Assembly: GCA_029974275.1 (NCBI GenBank)
Contig: JARKSN010000022.1
Span: 1 to 27,328, forward strand
DNA from: Candidatus Hydrogenedentota bacterium
Lineage (GTDB): Bacteria; Hydrogenedentota; Hydrogenedentia; Hydrogenedentales; SLHB01
DNA: 27,328 nt
Direction of reading: 5' to 3'
Positions within the stretch are counted from its first letter, which is position 1, and the number at the start of each line of letters is the position of its first letter. The position numbers were made by a program, and so were the translations under genes. Positions 7,039-21,666 of this stretch are shown here, one piece after another. The notes under the pieces are model-generated. The model searched no databases. It saw nothing but the letters and a program-made list of their open reading frames with translations, and was not told where the DNA came from.

Positions 7039-7410
7039 CTAGGGCTGATCCTCCACGATATCCGTTTTCCGGGCGCGTCGGCGACGGCGCGCCTTGTTTT
7101 TTCGTATCCGGTCTCGCTTAAGAGCTTCGGAGCTAGCAGATCCAAGTTGCTGGGATTCAAGCAATTCACAAAGACGACGGCGTGCGTAGAAGCGGTTGAG
7201 CGCCTGCGATCGCGCCCGTTGCATCTTCACTTCAAGGCCGCTGGGGCGATGCACAAGCCGGACGCACGTTGCGGTGCGGTTGACATGTTGGCCGCCGGGG
7301 CCTCCGGAAGTCACGAACGATTCGTCCATGTCCTGTTCCAGCAGCCCGCACGCCGCCATGCGGGCGAACAGCTCGGCCTCTTTTGCCGGCGTCACCCCAA
7401 ATCGCGACAT
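7039..7410 (-). CDS. Peptide chain release factor-like protein (RF-1 domain, ArfB/YaeJ-like ribosome rescue peptidyl-tRNA hydrolase)
   Basis: ESFVTSGGPGGQHVNRTATCVRLVHRPSGLEVKMQRARSQALNR with the GGQ motif and a basic C-terminal tail (RIRKNKARRRRRARK). ATG at 7410 overlaps the end of the Nif3 gene. Confidence 0.88.
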   Translation of the reverse strand: MSRFGVTPAKEAELFARMAACGLLEQDMDESFVTSGGPGGQHVNRTATCVRLVHRPSGLEVKMQRARSQALNRFYARRRLCELLESQQLGSASSEALKRDRIRKNKARRRRRARKTDIVEDQP

Positions 7411-8222
7411 GTTCCGCTCGAATCGACGGTGCGCACGGTCCATGTGCGCGGATGCTCGGCGTAGTAGCGGAAGGGCGTGGGAGAGAACGCCTCGGCAAGG
7501 TGATGGCAGAGGTTTTCCATACCCCACATTTCGGTGGTGCCGTGCTCGAGGGTGATGATCGCGACGCCCATTTCAGCCAAGCGCTCGCGCACAGCCCAGT
7601 AACAAGCGCCGTCGTAGCAGACGATCATCACATCCGCGCCGCTCTCGACCATTTCCTTGTCGGGACCAATACATCCCACGCCAAGCGCGGGGCGACTCAC
7701 TATCCTCTCCGGATCGCCGATAACCTGCACGCAGTCCTCGCCCAACGGCGCGATTTTGCGCGCAATGAAACAAGCGAATTCGCGCAACGACTGCGGCGCG
7801 ATCTCGTACATGCCGTGCAAATTCCAGACCGTTCCTTCTTTGATGCGTTTGGTCAGGCCCAACCCCGCCGCCCAGGAATCGCGGATGCCGATTCCGGGCC
7901 AATTGTCCCAACTATCATGCGCGCGCAATACAACAAGGCCGGAATCGTCCAGGAATTGCTGCTTGGCGACACCGGGCTCAATGACGCGCCAGTTTTTTTC
8001 CTCGGCGCTGTGTTCCCAAAAGATAGGCTCATGCACGATCAACAGATCACATCCCTCCGCGTGCGCCTTCTTCATCGTGTCGAGCGATCCAAACCACGCG
8101 ACGCCCGCTTGGCGCACCTCGCGCATCGGATCGCCGTTTTTGCAGCCATCAACCGTGTTTTCGCGATTCACCCATGGGCTATGTTCGAGAAGATATGCGT
8201 GTATATCGTGCGTCGTGGGCAT
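7392..8222 (-). CDS. Nif3-like dinuclear metal centre protein
   Basis: TVDGCKNGDP, DLLIVHEPIFW, VLRAHDSWD and LEHGTTE metal-binding motifs of the NIF3/DUF34 family; SD AGGAGA. Confidence 0.85.
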   Translation of the reverse strand: MPTTHDIHAYLLEHSPWVNRENTVDGCKNGDPMREVRQAGVAWFGSLDTMKKAHAEGCDLLIVHEPIFWEHSAEEKNWRVIEPGVAKQQFLDDSGLVVLRAHDSWDNWPGIGIRDSWAAGLGLTKRIKEGTVWNLHGMYEIAPQSLREFACFIARKIAPLGEDCVQVIGDPERIVSRPALGVGCIGPDKEMVESGADVMIVCYDGACYWAVRERLAEMGVAIITLEHGTTEMWGMENLCHHLAEAFSPTPFRYYAEHPRTWTVRTVDSSGTCRDLG

Positions 8223-8263
8223 GACGTTCTCCTAGTTGGCCTGCGTGCGGCGATTTCCCCATG

Positions 8264-8292
8264 ACCATATCGCATCCTCTCCTCCGGGGCAA
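8264..8292 (-). promoter_or_regulatory. Possible sigma-70 promoter for Nif3 and the ArfB-like gene
   Basis: Minus strand TTGCCC-N17-TATGGT, about 40 nt upstream of the start codon. Confidence 0.4.
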
Positions 8293-8365
8293 GTGCGGGC
8301 ATGTGGCAAGAGAAGGGACTGCTGGAACGGGGAAAAAGACAGGAATGGCGATAGAGTTCCACTCG

Positions 8366-8416
8366 AAAAGACGCACACAGAACACGCCTCCCCGGTCGGA
8401 AGGGCGCTCTGCATGC
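8366..8416 (-). terminator. Intrinsic terminator after the YjfB-like gene
   Basis: Minus strand GCATGCAGAGCGC...GTGTTCTGTGTGC long stem with G-U pairs, followed by GTCTTTT. Confidence 0.6.
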
Positions 8417-8442
8417 CTGGCGTCGTGAACGTGACTGTTGAA

Positions 8443-8643
8443 CTATGCGATCAGATTCAGATTTTCACCCACATTGGGATCGAGAGGAATCACGGAACTC
8501 CGGATCAACTCGATCGCCTGTGCGCCTAGATTCTTGACGGTGATCGGCTGTCCCGATCCCGCAGCACTGTTCTGGCGCATTTCCTGGGAAGTGACGGTTT
8601 GAATCTCGGCCCCGACACCGCTCACGGCAGCGATATTTGTCAT
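8443..8643 (-). CDS. YjfB-like putative motility microprotein (66 aa)
   Basis: Strong SD GAAAGGAGG before ATG 8643. The C-terminus 'AIELIRSSVIPLDPNVGENLNLIA' resembles the YjfB-family ending (L-I/L...P-x-x-G-x-N-I/L-D/N-x-x-A). A sigma-28 promoter lies upstream. Confidence 0.65.
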   Translation of the reverse strand: MTNIAAVSGVGAEIQTVTSQEMRQNSAAGSGQPITVKNLGAQAIELIRSSVIPLDPNVGENLNLIA

Positions 8644-8820
8644 CGGGCGCCTCCTTTCTTCTCGCGGTCGCACATCCCGCTCCTGGATATCTCCCTCTCG
8701 GGCAAGCTCCCATGTTATTGTGCGATAAGGGTTTGTCGCCGTCCCTAGCTTGGTGGCGGTGGCTACCCCACGGAGCCAGCCTATTTGGAAGCCCCTCCAT
8801 GGACTTCCATCACGTCCTAT

Positions 8821-8847
8821 ATATCGGACAGTCTGAGCAGAACTTTA
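8821..8847 (-). promoter_or_regulatory. sigma-28 (FliA/SigD) promoter
   Basis: Minus strand TAAA(GTT)-N15-TCCGATAT versus consensus TAAA-N15-GCCGATAA/T. Confidence 0.75.
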
Positions 8848-8930
8848 GGAGACTGACACAAAACAAGAATCATTTGGCGCCACCGCCTCCATCCTGTCGC
8901 CCTTTTGCCATCCAGTCATTAGTCGTGCGC

Positions 8931-8959
8931 TTGACGATGCCCCAACAGAGCGCTAGACT
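8931..8959 (+). promoter_or_regulatory. sigma-70 promoter for the SGNH-TPR / NUDIX operon
   Basis: TTGACG-N17-TAGACT. It overlaps the ORF-track TTG start at 8959, which argues for a later start codon. Confidence 0.7.
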
Positions 8960-9003
8960 TGCCCGGTCAAGGCGTTGCCCCAAATGGGAAAGGCGGATGC
9001 AAA

Positions 9004-12000
9004 GTGGCCGATACATCCAGAAAAAAACCGAGTTCCACGAAGCATTTCTCCCCTTCGGCCTGGGGCGGGGGAGGATCGCGCCTGGCTGTCTTCTGGGTCA
9101 TTGCCGTGGCAGGATTGCCGTTGCTCCTCCTTGCCTGTTTGGAACTCTCCCTCCGAGCGGCAGGATATGGCTATCCCACCCGTTATTTTCTTGAAAAAAA
9201 GATGGATTCGCCGCACGGCGTCCAGAGGTATGCAGTCGCCAACCCCGCATACCTGCTTCGTTTCTTCCCGCCGCAGGTCGCCCGTCCGACGTTTCCATCG
9301 GTCTTTCCCGTCGCAAAGCCCCCCAACACCGTCCGTTGTTTTGTATTGGGAGAGTCATCGGCAATGGGCGAACCCAACGCCGATGCCGGGTTCTGGCGTT
9401 TTTTGCAGACGATGCTTGAGGCGCAAGCGCCGGAAAGGCACGTTGAGTTTATCAATTGCGCCCCCCCCGCAATCAACACCCATGTTTTGGCGGCCATGGC
9501 GCGTGAGTGCATCCGGTATTCTCCCGACCTATTCCTCGTTCTCGCAGGCAATAACGAGGTCATGGGCCCATTCGGGCCGTCAAGCGCCTTGGGCGGCCAT
9601 GTGCCGAGCATTCCGCTCATCCGGGCCGGTCTGTTGTGCCGGACGTTTCGCTTAGGTCAGTTTTTGGACAAGACGATATCGTTCGTCACGCGCGCCAAAC
9701 CATTCCCTTCCCATGGTTCAGAGAATCCCTTCCTGGGGCGGGAAATCGCGGCGACGGACTCGCGACTAAAAACTGTCCGCGCCGCCTTTCGCCGAAACAT
9801 GGACGATATCCTATCCACGGCGACGGAAAACGGCGTGCGCGTAGTCGTTTGCACCGTCCCGGTGAATCTTCGCGACTGCCCACCCTTCGCATCCATGCCC
9901 CGCCAGGACATGGACGCAGCCCAGCGGGACGAATGGTCCAGCCGCTTCAAAGAAGGCATTGCATTGGAAAAGGCTTCGAAACCCGCCGAAGCGATGCAGG
10001 CCTATTACGAGGCGGCGGCGATCGATGATTCGCACGCAGAACTCCAGTTCCATTTGGGGCGCCTCCATCTGGCCGCGGGCGACGCCGAAGAGGCCTATCG
10101 CCGGTTTGCCACAGCGCGCGATCTGGATGCAGTCCGCCTGAGAGCGGACGCAGCGTTGAACGATATCGTGCGCGATTTGGCGAAAATCTATTCCTCTAAC
10201 CTAGTCGCGCTCGCCGACGTAGAGGAAGAATTGAGACGCACAAGTCCCGACGGCATTCCTGGAAGCGATCTTTTCTACGATCACATCCACATGACCCCCT
10301 CTGGCAGTTATCGCGTCGCTCAAGCGATATTGCCCGTGGCGTCCAAGGCTCTTTCCGGAATCCTGCCCGATGACGTCGCCGCCGAACCACTCACCGAGGA
10401 ACAATGCTGCACGCGCCTGGCGATTACCGGATGGCATCGTCTTCGCGACATGCAAGCGATGATGGCCGCGTTATCCACGCCTCCGTTCACGGCGCAATGG
10501 AACCACGCCGCACGACTCGGCTCCCTGAAACGCGAGACGTCGCGCCTGCTACGGAGCCGAACCCAAACCGATTTGCTGCGCGATCTGCGTCAGGTGGAAC
10601 AGTTCCTTGCCGAAAAATCGGATCGGATATCCCAATGGGGGCGTCTTCAGGAAATGTATTTCGAGCTTGGGGATTACGCGAAATCGCTGGAAAGCGTCGA
10701 AGCCGCCCTTGCAAGAAACCCCCTCGAAACGAACCTTCGGGCCGCGTATGGCGTTTCATTGACCAACGTCCGGCGTGCCGAAGACGCCCTGAGACAATAC
10801 CGTCTTGTTCTCGACGCCACGCCCTCGGAATTGATTTTCGTGCGTAGCGCGGTGGGGGGGATGTTGGCGCGGGGACTCTGGACGTTGGGACGTTTGGACG
10901 CGGCAGAAACCCAATTTCGAGAACTCTTGGAGCGCGATCCGCGCAATACGCCTCTTCTGGAGGATCTCGGATCCCTTTATGGAGCGCGGGGCGATTGGGA
11001 CCGGGCCATCGAATGTTTTGACAAGGCGATTGAAAACAGATGGGAGGCCCCGACAGCCTGCATGGCGCTTGACCGAACCCTGATCGCGCGGGGCGATCCC
11101 GTCGCCCGGATCGAGCATTGGCGGCGATGGATCGAACGTTTTCCTGATCGCGTTTCCTTGCATCGGCAGTGCGCCATTGCGCTCGACATGCAGTTCGACC
11201 TCAAAGGCGCGACCGAGCAATGGCGCAAAGCGATCGCCCTTGACCCCACCGACGCAGGGTCCGTAGTGGACCTGGCCAACGTGTTGCGACGCGGCGGCGA
11301 TACGGAGAATGCGGCGCGGGAATACCGACACGCGATCGAAATGGACCCGTATTTCACCGCTGCCCGCAATGGATTGGCGGGGCTGCTCAACGCGCAGGGC
11401 GATCTCGAAGGCGCACTTGACGTGTTTCGCGACCCAATACGAAACAATCCGAACGATAGAAAGGCATACGAAGAGTTGGATGCGTTTTTGACCTATCGGG
11501 GGGAAGCGGACTTGAGGCTTCGCGAGTGCCGTGCGCTTGTGCGGGATTATCCGGACGTCGCGCAGGCGCATTTTATCTTGGCGCGAGCATTGGACGCCGC
11601 CAGCCTGCTGGACAGCGCCCTTCCCGAGTACCGGCAAGCCCTGACGCTAGACCCGGATGATCCCGACAAGAAAACGGATATGGGGTGGGCTCTGCAGCGC
11701 AAAGGCTACAAGGAAGAGGCGGCGGCGCTGTACGCGGAAATCCTGGCGCAGAATCCCTACCATGCGGCCGCCTTGAACAATCGAGGATTGCTCGCGTTCG
11801 ATCAGGGAAAACTCGACGACGCCCTGCCGGATTTCCGTGCGGCGCTCCGGCTGACGCCTCAATTCGAAGTCGCCGCCGAAAACATCGACCGGGTCTACCT
11901 TCGCCGAAAGGATACAGAAGGCCGTTTGCGCGAATGGAGATCCCTTGTCGAGCGCATGCCCGACAAGCCGTTGCCTCGTCATCGTTTAGGGCTAGCGCTC

Positions 12001-19647: not shown

Positions 19648-21666
19648 ATGAAAGGTCATGACTTACATAAAGGCATAGGCGATTGTAGTATGGACACATT
19701 TCACGGGGAAGCCCACGCCCTCAAATCAAGCGATGATGATGGAATTCTCAGAGTCTTCGATGCTTTTCAAGATGGGATCGTGTTGGTGCAGCAAGACATG
19801 ACCATCTTATTCGCCAATCGGGCCGTCGGAAAATGGGGATTCAATGCCGCATCGATGTGTGGGGGGGCTTGTGGCGAATTCGCGGTGGGGTGTCTCGCAT
19901 GCGGGGACGATTGCATTGTGCAGCAGGCGCTGGCGCAGGCGATCCCCGTCCGCCAGGAACGATCGTTTCACGATGCCGCGGGCAGGCTGCATGTGCTCGA
20001 GGTGTTTGCGGCGCCGATGATGGATGTGAAAGGACGGGTTGATGCTGTGCTCAAGTCGGTGCGCGACATCACCGAACAGCGCCAGGCGGAGCAAGCGCTG
20101 CTGGCCAGCGAGGAGAGGCATCGCGCGGTGCTGGAAGGCATCGAAGACGGATACTACGAGGTGGACCTGCGGGGACGTTTCGTTTTTTTCAATGAAGCGC
20201 TGAGCCGTATGCTTGGTTGTCTGCCGCTTGAGATGCTGGGCCATTCCTATAAGCAGTTTGCGCTGCCTGACAGCGTGCCTTCGATTCGAAATGCGTTTTT
20301 GCGCGTGCTGCGGAGCGGACGGCCCGAACGCGCCTTTGATTGCAGCGTGCGCCGCAAGGATGGTTCGGTAGGGCACATCAGCCTCTCGATTGCCTTGGTG
20401 CATGCCGAGAATGGGGACGCCAAGGGATTTCGAGGCATTGTTCGGGACATCACGGAATGCAAAATCAACGAGACAATTCAGCGCCGCATGGAAGCGCAGA
20501 TGGTTCATGCGCAGAAAATGGAAAGCCTCGGCATAATGGCCGGGGGAATAGCGCATGACTTCAACAACATTCTGATGGGCATTTTGGGGAACACGGATTT
20601 AGCGCTTTTGGAGGAGGACACTTCCGAGCCTGTCCGCGAATGCCTCAACGAAATACGCGGGGCGGCGTTTCGCGCTGCGCATCTCATCAGCCAGATGGTG
20701 GCGTACAGCGGACAAGGGCCGTATTTTGTCCAAGCCATCGACCTGTCCGCCTTCCTGGAGGAATCGGCGGGATTGGTGGAGACAGCGGCTCACGGCGTGT
20801 CCGTTGCGTTTCAACTTGCTTCGGACCTTCCGTCCATCGAGGCCGACGAGACCCAACTGCGGCAATTGCTCATCAACCTTGTCGCCAACGCGTCGGAATC
20901 CATGACGGAGGGGGGCGCGATTACGTTATCGACGGGGACCATGGCCGTGGATCGACGTTTCCTGGCTCATGTGTCCATGGAGCATGGGCTCCACGAGGGA
21001 ACCTGCGTCTTCCTTGAAGTGGCCGACACCGGCACGGGCATGGATGCGCCCACGCAAGCGCGCATGTTCGAGCCTTTCTTCACGACCAAATTCGCGGGGC
21101 GCGGGCTTGGACTGGCGGCGGTGCAAGGCATTGTGCGGATGCATCGCGGAGCGGTGCGCGTGCTGAGTTCGCCCGGGCAGGGAACAACGGTGCGCGTGTG
21201 TTTTCCGCTAGCTTCTTCTGCGGAAAAGGGGGAGCGCAAGCGCATTCCGGGATCGCTTTCCGATACCCTGCGGGGGGCGCAAGTGCTCGTGGTGGAGGAT
21301 GACGATGCGATCCGGAGCGTGACGCGCCGCACGTTGGAACGGGCGGGGTGTCGCGTCATCGTCGCGCGCAACGGGCGCGAGGCGGTGGATTTGTTCCGGC
21401 TCTGCGCGGCCAAGATTTCGGTGGTCATTTTGGATTTGATCATGCCGGAGATGACGGGCGAAGAGGCGTTGCGAATTATTCGTTCAATCCGTCCGGACGT
21501 GCCGGTGATCTTGTCGAGCGGATATAGCGAAGAGGACATGGAACAGCATTTTCGCGGGGTCGGCATCAGCGCCATTTTGCACAAGCCATACGGCGCTTCG
21601 GACGTGGTCAGCGCGGTGTGTCGAGCATTGGAAGCGCCGATGGAAACGCTTGAAAGAGAGGTCTGA
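19648..21666 (+). CDS. PAS-PAS hybrid sensor histidine kinase / response regulator (CckA-like architecture)
   Basis: Two PAS/PAC domains (VRDITE twice); H-box QKMESLGIMAGGIAHDFNN; NLVANA, VADTGTGM, FEPFFTTK, GRGLGL; receiver VVEDD...ILDLIMP...SGY...KPY. Alternative start ATG 19690. Confidence 0.95.
   Translation: MKGHDLHKGIGDCSMDTFHGEAHALKSSDDDGILRVFDAFQDGIVLVQQDMTILFANRAVGKWGFNAASMCGGACGEFAVGCLACGDDCIVQQALAQAIPVRQERSFHDAAGRLHVLEVFAAPMMDVKGRVDAVLKSVRDITEQRQAEQALLASEERHRAVLEGIEDGYYEVDLRGRFVFFNEALSRMLGCLPLEMLGHSYKQFALPDSVPSIRNAFLRVLRSGRPERAFDCSVRRKDGSVGHISLSIALVHAENGDAKGFRGIVRDITECKINETIQRRMEAQMVHAQKMESLGIMAGGIAHDFNNILMGILGNTDLALLEEDTSEPVRECLNEIRGAAFRAAHLISQMVAYSGQGPYFVQAIDLSAFLEESAGLVETAAHGVSVAFQLASDLPSIEADETQLRQLLINLVANASESMTEGGAITLSTGTMAVDRRFLAHVSMEHGLHEGTCVFLEVADTGTGMDAPTQARMFEPFFTTKFAGRGLGLAAVQGIVRMHRGAVRVLSSPGQGTTVRVCFPLASSAEKGERKRIPGSLSDTLRGAQVLVVEDDDAIRSVTRRTLERAGCRVIVARNGREAVDLFRLCAAKISVVILDLIMPEMTGEEALRIIRSIRPDVPVILSSGYSEEDMEQHFRGVGISAILHKPYGASDVVSAVCRALEAPMETLEREV

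Follow-up and report, generated by a model that had tools for sequence, protein, structure and literature searches.

The DNA analysed here (the window) comprises positions 1 to 27,328 of contig JARKSN010000022.1 (C49), part of the metagenome-assembled genome (MAG) of an uncultured wastewater bacterium of the phylum Hydrogenedentota (4.38 Mb, 342 contigs, 60.6% G+C). Its minus strand carries a complete small transcription unit, consisting of a sigma-28 (FliA)-type promoter, a long 5′ leader, a Shine-Dalgarno sequence, a 66-amino acid (aa) open reading frame (ORF) and a terminator-like hairpin, all located where the original prediction, made from the sequence alone, had placed them. That prediction had described a stand-alone sigma-28 unit whose GGA- and hairpin-rich leader might serve as a CsrA sponge as well as the mRNA of a YjfB-like microprotein, and it is the nature of this leader and of its product that concerns us here. 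The promoter (8847-8821) reads CTAAAGTT-CTGCTCAGACTG-TCCGATAT over 8848-8821, with TAAA at 8847-8844, a spacer of 15 nucleotides (nt) and TCCGATAT at 8828-8821; it thus matches exactly the sigma-28 signature of TAAA and (G/T)CCGATA(A/T) about 15 nt apart, and it is identical in a 97.8%-identical strain variant. The leader (8644-8812, about 169-172 nt, its start near 8812 placed by promoter geometry) contains the Shine-Dalgarno sequence AAGGAGG at 8656-8650, 6 nt before the ATG at 8643. The ORF runs from 8643 to 8446 with its stop codon TAG at 8445-8443, and is followed by a terminator-like 19-base pair (bp) hairpin (8416-8373; fold z -2.4 and consensus scan) and GUCUUUUCG, reaching 8364. The terminator has only a short U tract, in which the related strain carries a T-to-A exchange at 8369, with further changes at 8396 and 8374. 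Since family searches found no flagellar family among the 20 larger window ORFs, the unit indeed stands alone.

The leader and the ORF are transcribed. Contigs of four metatranscriptomes from four studies (of five matching RNA runs), which cannot show RNA ends, are all 100% identical to the window and all lie inside 8422-8805. One of them (run X2; 8425-8805) joins nearly the whole leader to the entire ORF, and the others cover 8597-8803, 8585-8795, 8422-8576 and 8550-8702. Because the X2 contig spans 8425-8805, the 5′ end does not lie near the ATG, and the evidence runs contrary to a start close to it, the case in which the original prediction would have failed. The contigs of three studies end without loose ends at 8805, 8803 (X9) and 8795 (X10), none reaching beyond; that they stop a few bases inside the predicted start at about 8812 is a weak hint in its favour. 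Toward the 3′ end, two studies have contigs that break off at 8422 and 8425, short of the terminator hairpin, which therefore remains a prediction from sequence, and transcription may read through into the NIF3 gene that starts at 8222. No RNA piece in the four runs covered 8000-8421 or 8806-9200, a result that in contig data is uninformative on the neighbouring genes.

The regulators that the original prediction presupposed are all encoded in the genome. A FliA/WhiG sigma factor is present (TIGR02479, 247.8 bits compared with the NCBIfam cut-off of 189.6), as are three flagellins and hook-associated proteins, and csrA (PF02599, 90.6 bits) lies immediately downstream of fliW (PF02623, 112.4 bits) on contig C169. 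Searching both strands of the 4.38-Mb genome for TAAAGTT-N13/14-CCGATA with at most one mismatch yielded 11 sites. Six of these precede FlgK (PF22638, 177 bits), FliD (118 and 72 bits), two FlgM-like genes (24.8 and 24.5 bits, just below the cut-off of 25) and two flagellins; the remaining five precede the window ORF, a Cys-rich 69-aa ORF and three terminator-ended RNAs without a convincing ORF. With only 11 sites in the genome, six of them before late flagellar or flagellin genes, the promoter exceeds chance: the sites hold what a late flagellar regulon should hold, and the promoter is genuine.

The ORF has weak relatives, with 33-43% identity in a search of 61 related genomes, plus a paralogue on contig C91. 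Nine of the 11 members of the resulting protein alignment (A1) match PF14070, YjfB_motility (best expectation value (E) 1.3e-9), and hhalign aligned the window ORF with the other ten over all 66 residues (probability 98.2%, E 3.7e-14), with M1 on the invariant first residue of the family. Owing to this end-to-end profile alignment and to the PF14070 matches of its relatives, we classify the ORF by sequence profile as a divergent YjfB-family member, differing mostly in the central third. It shares with YjfB of Bacillus subtilis (PF14070, 'putative motility protein') a length of about 60-66 aa and positions conserved in the same pattern, among them the C-terminal DPxVGxNL motif, but its central third is divergent and on its own it falls below the Pfam model. 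Within the taxonomic family, a profile detects YjfB proteins in 42 of 54 genomes, frequently with two matches, and YjfB-family genes occur in all five sampled genomes of five other families, in two copies each. Comparison of a 32-member profile with PDB sequences revealed no solved structure for the family, as the matches were confined to designed TPR proteins with E of 0.045 or higher; AlphaFold2, run on a 32-sequence alignment, gave a poor model of two helices (mean predicted local distance difference test score 52.6). A published study describes YjfB as a small protein, so far uncharacterised, with a link to the sigma-28 module (PMC11607428). Our literature search found no paper that ties YjfB to CsrA; the one paper in it that mentions both draws no connection between them. 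YjfB-family proteins are thus widespread and sigma-28-linked, yet uncharacterised.

Two observations on further YjfB copies may be added. The paralogue of the same genome (C91, 23549-23737, minus strand; 37% identical) has no sigma-28 motif; its A+T-rich upstream region carries a sigma-70-like TTGACG-N17-TATAAA. In the five genomes from outside the family, one YjfB copy is sigma-28-driven and the other usually is not.

The leader holds eight GGA triplets, five of them ANGGA, and a ninth (8817-8815) is found shortly before the likely start, in agreement with the earlier count of eight to nine GGA and five ANGGA; a GGA described as overlapping the Shine-Dalgarno sequence is likewise found, at 8654-8652 inside AAGGAGG. 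The standout feature of the leader is a 5′-proximal hairpin (HP1, 8809-8786), UGGAAGUCC-AUGGAG-GGGCUUCCA, in which a 9-bp stem with a closing C-G pair presents the hexaloop AUGGAG, so that the loop reads CAUGGAGG, an instance of CANGGANG. HP1 has a folding energy of -12 kcal/mol and is present in every folding setting, with its loop GGA unpaired at a probability of about 1. A CANGGANG motif on a stem of at least 3 bp is expected only about 0.01 times per 171 nt of this genome. In total, the GGAs at 8798, 8744, 8683 and, in local folds, 8654 are predicted to be exposed, with spacings of 54, 61 and 29 nt, and the four at 8808, 8710, 8694 and 8677 to be paired. A second hairpin, AUAUCC-AGGAGCG-GGAUGU (HP2, 8690-8672; -4.1 to -5.3 kcal/mol), is weak and missing from the global minimum-energy fold, though its GGA 8683 is still predicted to be unpaired (P 0.88-0.97 in three folding settings). 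Of the at least two loop GGAs proposed earlier, that of HP1 sits in a strong hexaloop hairpin and that of HP2 in a weak one. The Shine-Dalgarno GGA 8654, mostly unpaired in local folds, follows 29 nt after GGA 8683; the two together reproduce the hag/flaA-type combination of a Shine-Dalgarno GGA with an exposed GGA tens of nt upstream. The leader has no repeat or duplicate elsewhere in the genome, and a search of 7800-9400 against Rfam (E up to 10) gave no match to it, returning one chance match outside the unit.

The loop of HP1 recurs in the regulon. We compiled 11 sigma-28-driven 5′ regions and small RNAs (sRNAs) of this genome, chosen by promoter alone and totalling 1412 nt. This set contains 13 CANGGANG motifs compared with 0.54 expected from genome frequency, and 11 motifs on a stem of at least 3 bp compared with 0.08 expected. 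Leaving out the window unit changes these values to 12 versus 0.48 and 10 versus 0.07, respectively. At least one motif is present in seven of the 11 transcripts, and among the 11 stemmed motifs HP1 has the longest stem. In the flagellin leaders, GCAAGGAUGC or GCAUGGAUGC is combined with a Shine-Dalgarno site, the classical pair of hairpin site and Shine-Dalgarno site. A CANGGANG hexaloop corresponds to the high-affinity apical type of CsrA site, as stated in portions of the flaA study (PMC4894983). These data define a CsrA-type hairpin for an uncultured phylum, a C-G-closed A-N-GGA-N hexaloop that marks much of its sigma-28 regulon.

Two members of this set have features of their own. On contig C151 (16555-16090, minus strand), the sigma-28 promoter of one flagellin lies about 425 nt upstream of the ATG, and the leader contains 13 GGA and four CANGGANG; a first set of hairpin and Shine-Dalgarno sequence precedes a 13-codon mini-ORF, and another such set comes directly before the flagellin start. 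On contig C239 (17812-17551, minus strand), a sigma-28-like promoter is found 21 nt before the Cys-rich 69-aa ORF, which has no Pfam match and whose Shine-Dalgarno region GGCCAAGGAGGGCU is itself a stemmed CANGGANG.

Comparison with orthologous loci separates a shared part of the leader from a private one. Of 31 YjfB loci of the taxonomic family, 22 have a sigma-28 motif with at most one mismatch ahead of the gene and two more have weaker versions; the promoter stands at a fixed distance also from one YjfB copy in each of the five outside genomes, giving 27 sigma-28-driven leaders in total. The other 26 measure 34-53 nt and contain one to four GGA, which leaves the window leader, with 171 nt and eight GGA, as the sole long one; the loop-GGA arrangement is therefore not conserved in orthologous leaders, and the many-site layout is restricted to this species. 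In a typical short leader, 20-35 nt separate A(N)GGA from a downstream AAGGAGG Shine-Dalgarno sequence. Eleven dereplicated short leaders were compared with equivalent regions ahead of 1381 other ORFs; eight of the leaders have a GGA before the Shine-Dalgarno sequence, and six have ANGGA there, compared with a background of 14% (binomial P about 0.002). The 50 nt of the window leader nearest the ORF (HP2, spacer and Shine-Dalgarno sequence) have the layout of the whole leader of the relatives, GGA 8683 lying where the 34-53-nt leaders have their single upstream GGA site, and in the closest relative by BLAST (L038) a 7-bp hairpin GGCGCUC-ACGGAG-GAGCGCC follows right after the start, like HP1. 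For both reasons the middle of the window leader looks like a species-specific insertion. Protein-based scans of metagenome and genome contigs revealed no close relatives carrying the long leader. A DNA pattern derived from HP1 matched 27 stretches, of which only two, mutually identical (L072 and L076), represent the same locus, at 97.8% identity. This strain variant has 12 differences, two in the leader (8785 and 8754) and one near the start (8814), and none in any GGA, HP1, HP2 or the Shine-Dalgarno sequence. As this strain is the only other copy and differs at so few positions, covariation cannot be shown for the long leader.

On the basis of this evidence, we consider it reasonably probable that the locus encodes a CsrA/FliW-controlled late flagellar mRNA of the hag/flaA type, with CsrA binding as a prediction. 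A hag-like mechanism is supported by the concentration of stemmed CANGGANG motifs in sigma-28 transcripts and by the fliW-csrA pair. In this model, FliA (sigma-28) would start a monocistronic late (class III-type) transcript at about 8812, encoding the divergent 66-aa YjfB-family protein, whose biochemical role is uncharacterised. Candidate CsrA-type sites in its leader would be the GGA of the HP1 hexaloop, the exposed GGA 8683 and, 29 nt further on, the Shine-Dalgarno GGA. By analogy, a CsrA dimer would bridge the upstream GGA and the Shine-Dalgarno GGA and block the ribosome, and FliW, once freed from exported flagellin, would capture CsrA and lift the repression. The protein would then be made only after completion of the hook-basal body. 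The extra 120 nt including HP1 may add a second CsrA dimer or stabilize the 5′ end. If a YjfB gene carries both the flagellin-style transcriptional and the CsrA-type translational signals, it would belong to the last step of flagellum assembly, which gives a concrete handle on the function of the family.

This model draws on several known systems. Like the hag leader of B. subtilis (Hag-FliW-CsrA), the window unit has a sigma-D/sigma-28 promoter and one GGA over the Shine-Dalgarno sequence with one upstream, and its genome has csrA adjoining fliW. As excerpts of a 2020 review describe it, hag is repressed via two sites, one of them over the Shine-Dalgarno sequence, and FliW antagonizes CsrA (PMC7652899). 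In contrast to hag, the window gene encodes a YjfB-like small protein instead of flagellin, its CsrA sites are predicted ones, and its leader, about 170 nt long, carries an additional hexaloop hairpin near the 5′ end, 144 nt away from the Shine-Dalgarno sequence. The flaA mRNA of Campylobacter jejuni likewise belongs to the late flagellar genes of a FliW-type system and presents GGA in CANGGANG-type hexaloop hairpins (PMC4894983), but has two adjacent hexaloops and very high abundance, whereas the window leader has one canonical hexaloop. CsrB/CsrC and RsmX/Y/Z share with the leader loop GGA motifs in a potentially CsrA-binding RNA. They are, however, non-coding RNAs under BarA-UvrY-type control, with many exposed GGAs (13-22 according to the abstract of PMC6546359); the window RNA, in contrast, is an mRNA leader with three to four exposed GGAs, a sigma-28 promoter and no Rfam match.

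Sigma-28-driven RNAs closer in design to CsrA antagonists are encoded elsewhere in the genome. Two sRNAs, one on contig C106 (20764-20924, plus strand; L093:1765-1926) and one on contig C310 (about 14508-14348, minus strand), each have a sigma-28 promoter, a length of about 160 nt and a strong terminator, and both begin with two hairpins of the form GACA-N-GGA-N-GUC, 10-14 nt apart. Relatives occur in L094-L103 and L105-L134. An alignment of 11 members from 11 genomes (156-267 nt) shows two to four CANGGANG in each, a conserved AUCCC-containing hairpin, a GGUCUUACC(C/U)UC box and compensatory changes in the terminator. No ORF is common to the aligned sRNAs; the frame that begins with an ATG in the second loop, for example, has 28 codons in one genome but three in another. 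We scanned 135 genomes of the phylum with the twin-hairpin pattern G[AG]CAnGGAnG[UC]C-[AG]AGG-N2-14-GACAnGGAnGU, using the reversed pattern as a control. The pattern is present in 78 of the 135 genomes, with one to three copies each, and the control in none. Among the 110 matches, 98 read GAC...GUC and 12 GGC...GCC, and none takes one of the permitted mixed forms; thus, one stem pair covaries. In 30 loci from other families, a sigma-28 motif lies 16-20 nt upstream of all 35 modules (31 exact, four with one mismatch). csrA is found in 104 of the 135 genomes, and the sRNA in 72 of these 104 and in six of the 31 without csrA, a contrast that stems mostly from one family lacking both and is hence not independent evidence.

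The twin-hexaloop family is absent from Rfam, and among the matches listed in a literature search no such RNA is described. As a CsrA antagonist RNA in a FliW-bearing phylum, the family is a strong candidate. Whether FliW and sRNAs jointly act on CsrA in any species remained to be determined according to passages of the 2020 review (PMC7652899). The sRNA family may therefore matter more than the window locus itself: it is phylum-wide, sigma-28-driven and found in FliW genomes, and it makes joint antagonism of CsrA by FliW and RNA directly testable. As a side observation, a second sigma-28-like promoter lies directly upstream of the sRNA on C106 and would give a transcript of about 168 nt (T1, 20549-20716, plus strand) with a similar terminator, four GGA, no CANGGANG and no convincing ORF. 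T1 is undetected by the sRNA profile and may be a decayed paralogue of the sRNA.

Several results weigh against CsrA/FliW control of the window mRNA. CsrA binding and repression in this organism are predictions, and the start at about 8812 follows from promoter geometry, which contigs cannot confirm. HP1 is 144 nt away from the Shine-Dalgarno GGA, a distance that exceeds the span one CsrA dimer can bridge, and the proximal HP2 is weak and does not belong to the CANGGANG type. Nor does every sigma-28 transcript carry the motif: four of the 11 (those of FlgK, FliD, one FlgM-like protein and T1) lack it. In the short orthologous leaders, the total of GGA upstream of the Shine-Dalgarno sequence is not enriched (10 compared with 8.0 expected, P 0.25). 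The window ORF alone gives no PF14070 match (Pfam at E up to 1 and up to 10; gathering score 27 bits), so that its earlier designation as YjfB-like is upheld by the profile comparison and not by the Pfam model. Finally, the GGA total of the leader is eight compared with 6.4 in dinucleotide shuffles (P 0.27), and the leader as a whole folds only slightly better than shuffles (z -1.64).

The last two points agree with an explanation in which CsrA plays no role: the GGAs would simply follow from the purine richness of the leader and from its strong Shine-Dalgarno sequence, HP1 would protect the RNA from 5′-end-dependent decay and the 120 nt would be a neutral insertion. The leader is 61% purine, and its three unpaired GGAs in the minimum-energy fold, compared with 1.4 in shuffles, likewise stay within the shuffle range (P 0.15). 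At least one GGA falls into a hairpin loop in 44% of shuffles, and in 6.5% on a stem of at least 6 bp. Among genome-wide windows of the same length, the leader belongs to the 1.6% richest in GGA and the 0.08% richest in ANGGA, and ANGGA is marginally above shuffles (five compared with 1.7, P 0.02); the leader is unusual mainly through its G+A-rich composition. As shuffles give similar GGA counts and loop GGAs, the 'GGA/hairpin-rich' label attached to the leader is mostly composition once HP1 is set aside, correct though its counts are. Moreover, the long leader is not conserved beyond one strain, and a flagellin leader (C81) also begins with a GGAAG...CUUCC hairpin whose loop has no GGA. Such an origin nevertheless fails to account for a HP1 loop that is exactly CANGGANG on a 9-bp stem, any stemmed motif of this kind having a chance of about 1% in 171 nt, for the concentration of such motifs in sigma-28 transcripts, or for the ANGGA that short orthologous leaders keep 20-35 nt before the Shine-Dalgarno sequence above background. 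We therefore regard the absence of any CsrA role as unlikely. Far less credible still, and in our view very improbable, is that the leader is another cis-regulatory RNA, a riboswitch, thermosensor or Shine-Dalgarno-sequestering switch, controlling translation of the small protein. For a gene with 66 codons the leader is long, and one global fold pairs CUUCC of the 5′ region with the Shine-Dalgarno region, but this pairing vanishes when folding starts at 8812, no Rfam family matches at E up to 10, conservation in a single near-identical strain allows no covariation to be shown, and the relatives manage without a long leader.

The sponge hypothesis itself holds that the RNA has a dual function, coding for the small protein while its long GGA-rich leader titrates CsrA from flagellin and other targets. 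Its precedent is the flaA mRNA of C. jejuni, reported to be both target and titrator of CsrA in a FliW-type system (PMC4894983). The window leader is about 120 nt longer than that of any relative, adding a high-quality hexaloop site far from the Shine-Dalgarno sequence, and the unit could be assembled from four metatranscriptomes. The exposed-GGA spacings of 54, 61 and 29 nt could hold two dimers. However, only one site is canonical, with four of the eight GGAs predicted to be paired and three to four accessible; neither the GGA count exceeds composition nor, except for HP1, the loop-GGA counts those of shuffles; and the long leader occurs in just one of the 27 sigma-28-driven YjfB leaders, being otherwise kept only in the 97.8%-identical strain. 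Two dedicated sRNAs of the genome, both driven by sigma-28, furthermore carry a pair of canonical hexaloop hairpins each, and the sRNA-family profile finds no match to the leader or anywhere on the window contig at E up to 10. Because the sRNAs are terminator-ended and carry two canonical GGA hexaloop hairpins each, a sponge role fits them better than the leader. For these reasons, the sponge claim of the original prediction is not supported for the window unit, and a dual function of its mRNA appears quite unlikely to us. We have as little confidence in a combined scenario, in which the species gained a 120-nt 5′ extension with a high-affinity CsrA hexaloop and the leader became an extra sigma-28-timed titrator beside the two twin-hexaloop sRNAs; if it were true, CsrA of Hydrogenedentota would be antagonized by FliW and RNAs simultaneously. 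For the sRNA part of this scenario alone, we see the chances as about even.

The next minus-strand gene after the unit encodes a NIF3-family protein with its start at 8222, and a gene for a TPR protein is divergently transcribed from about 8959. An overlapping 111-aa ORF (8800-8465) was discarded, as it had only a sub-threshold chance match and no Shine-Dalgarno sequence. Within 7039-8222 (minus strand), the NIF3/DUF34 protein is followed downstream on the same strand by a small RF-1-domain (ArfB-like) protein; in the longest-ORF reading the two overlap by about 135 nt, and one start therefore probably lies further in.

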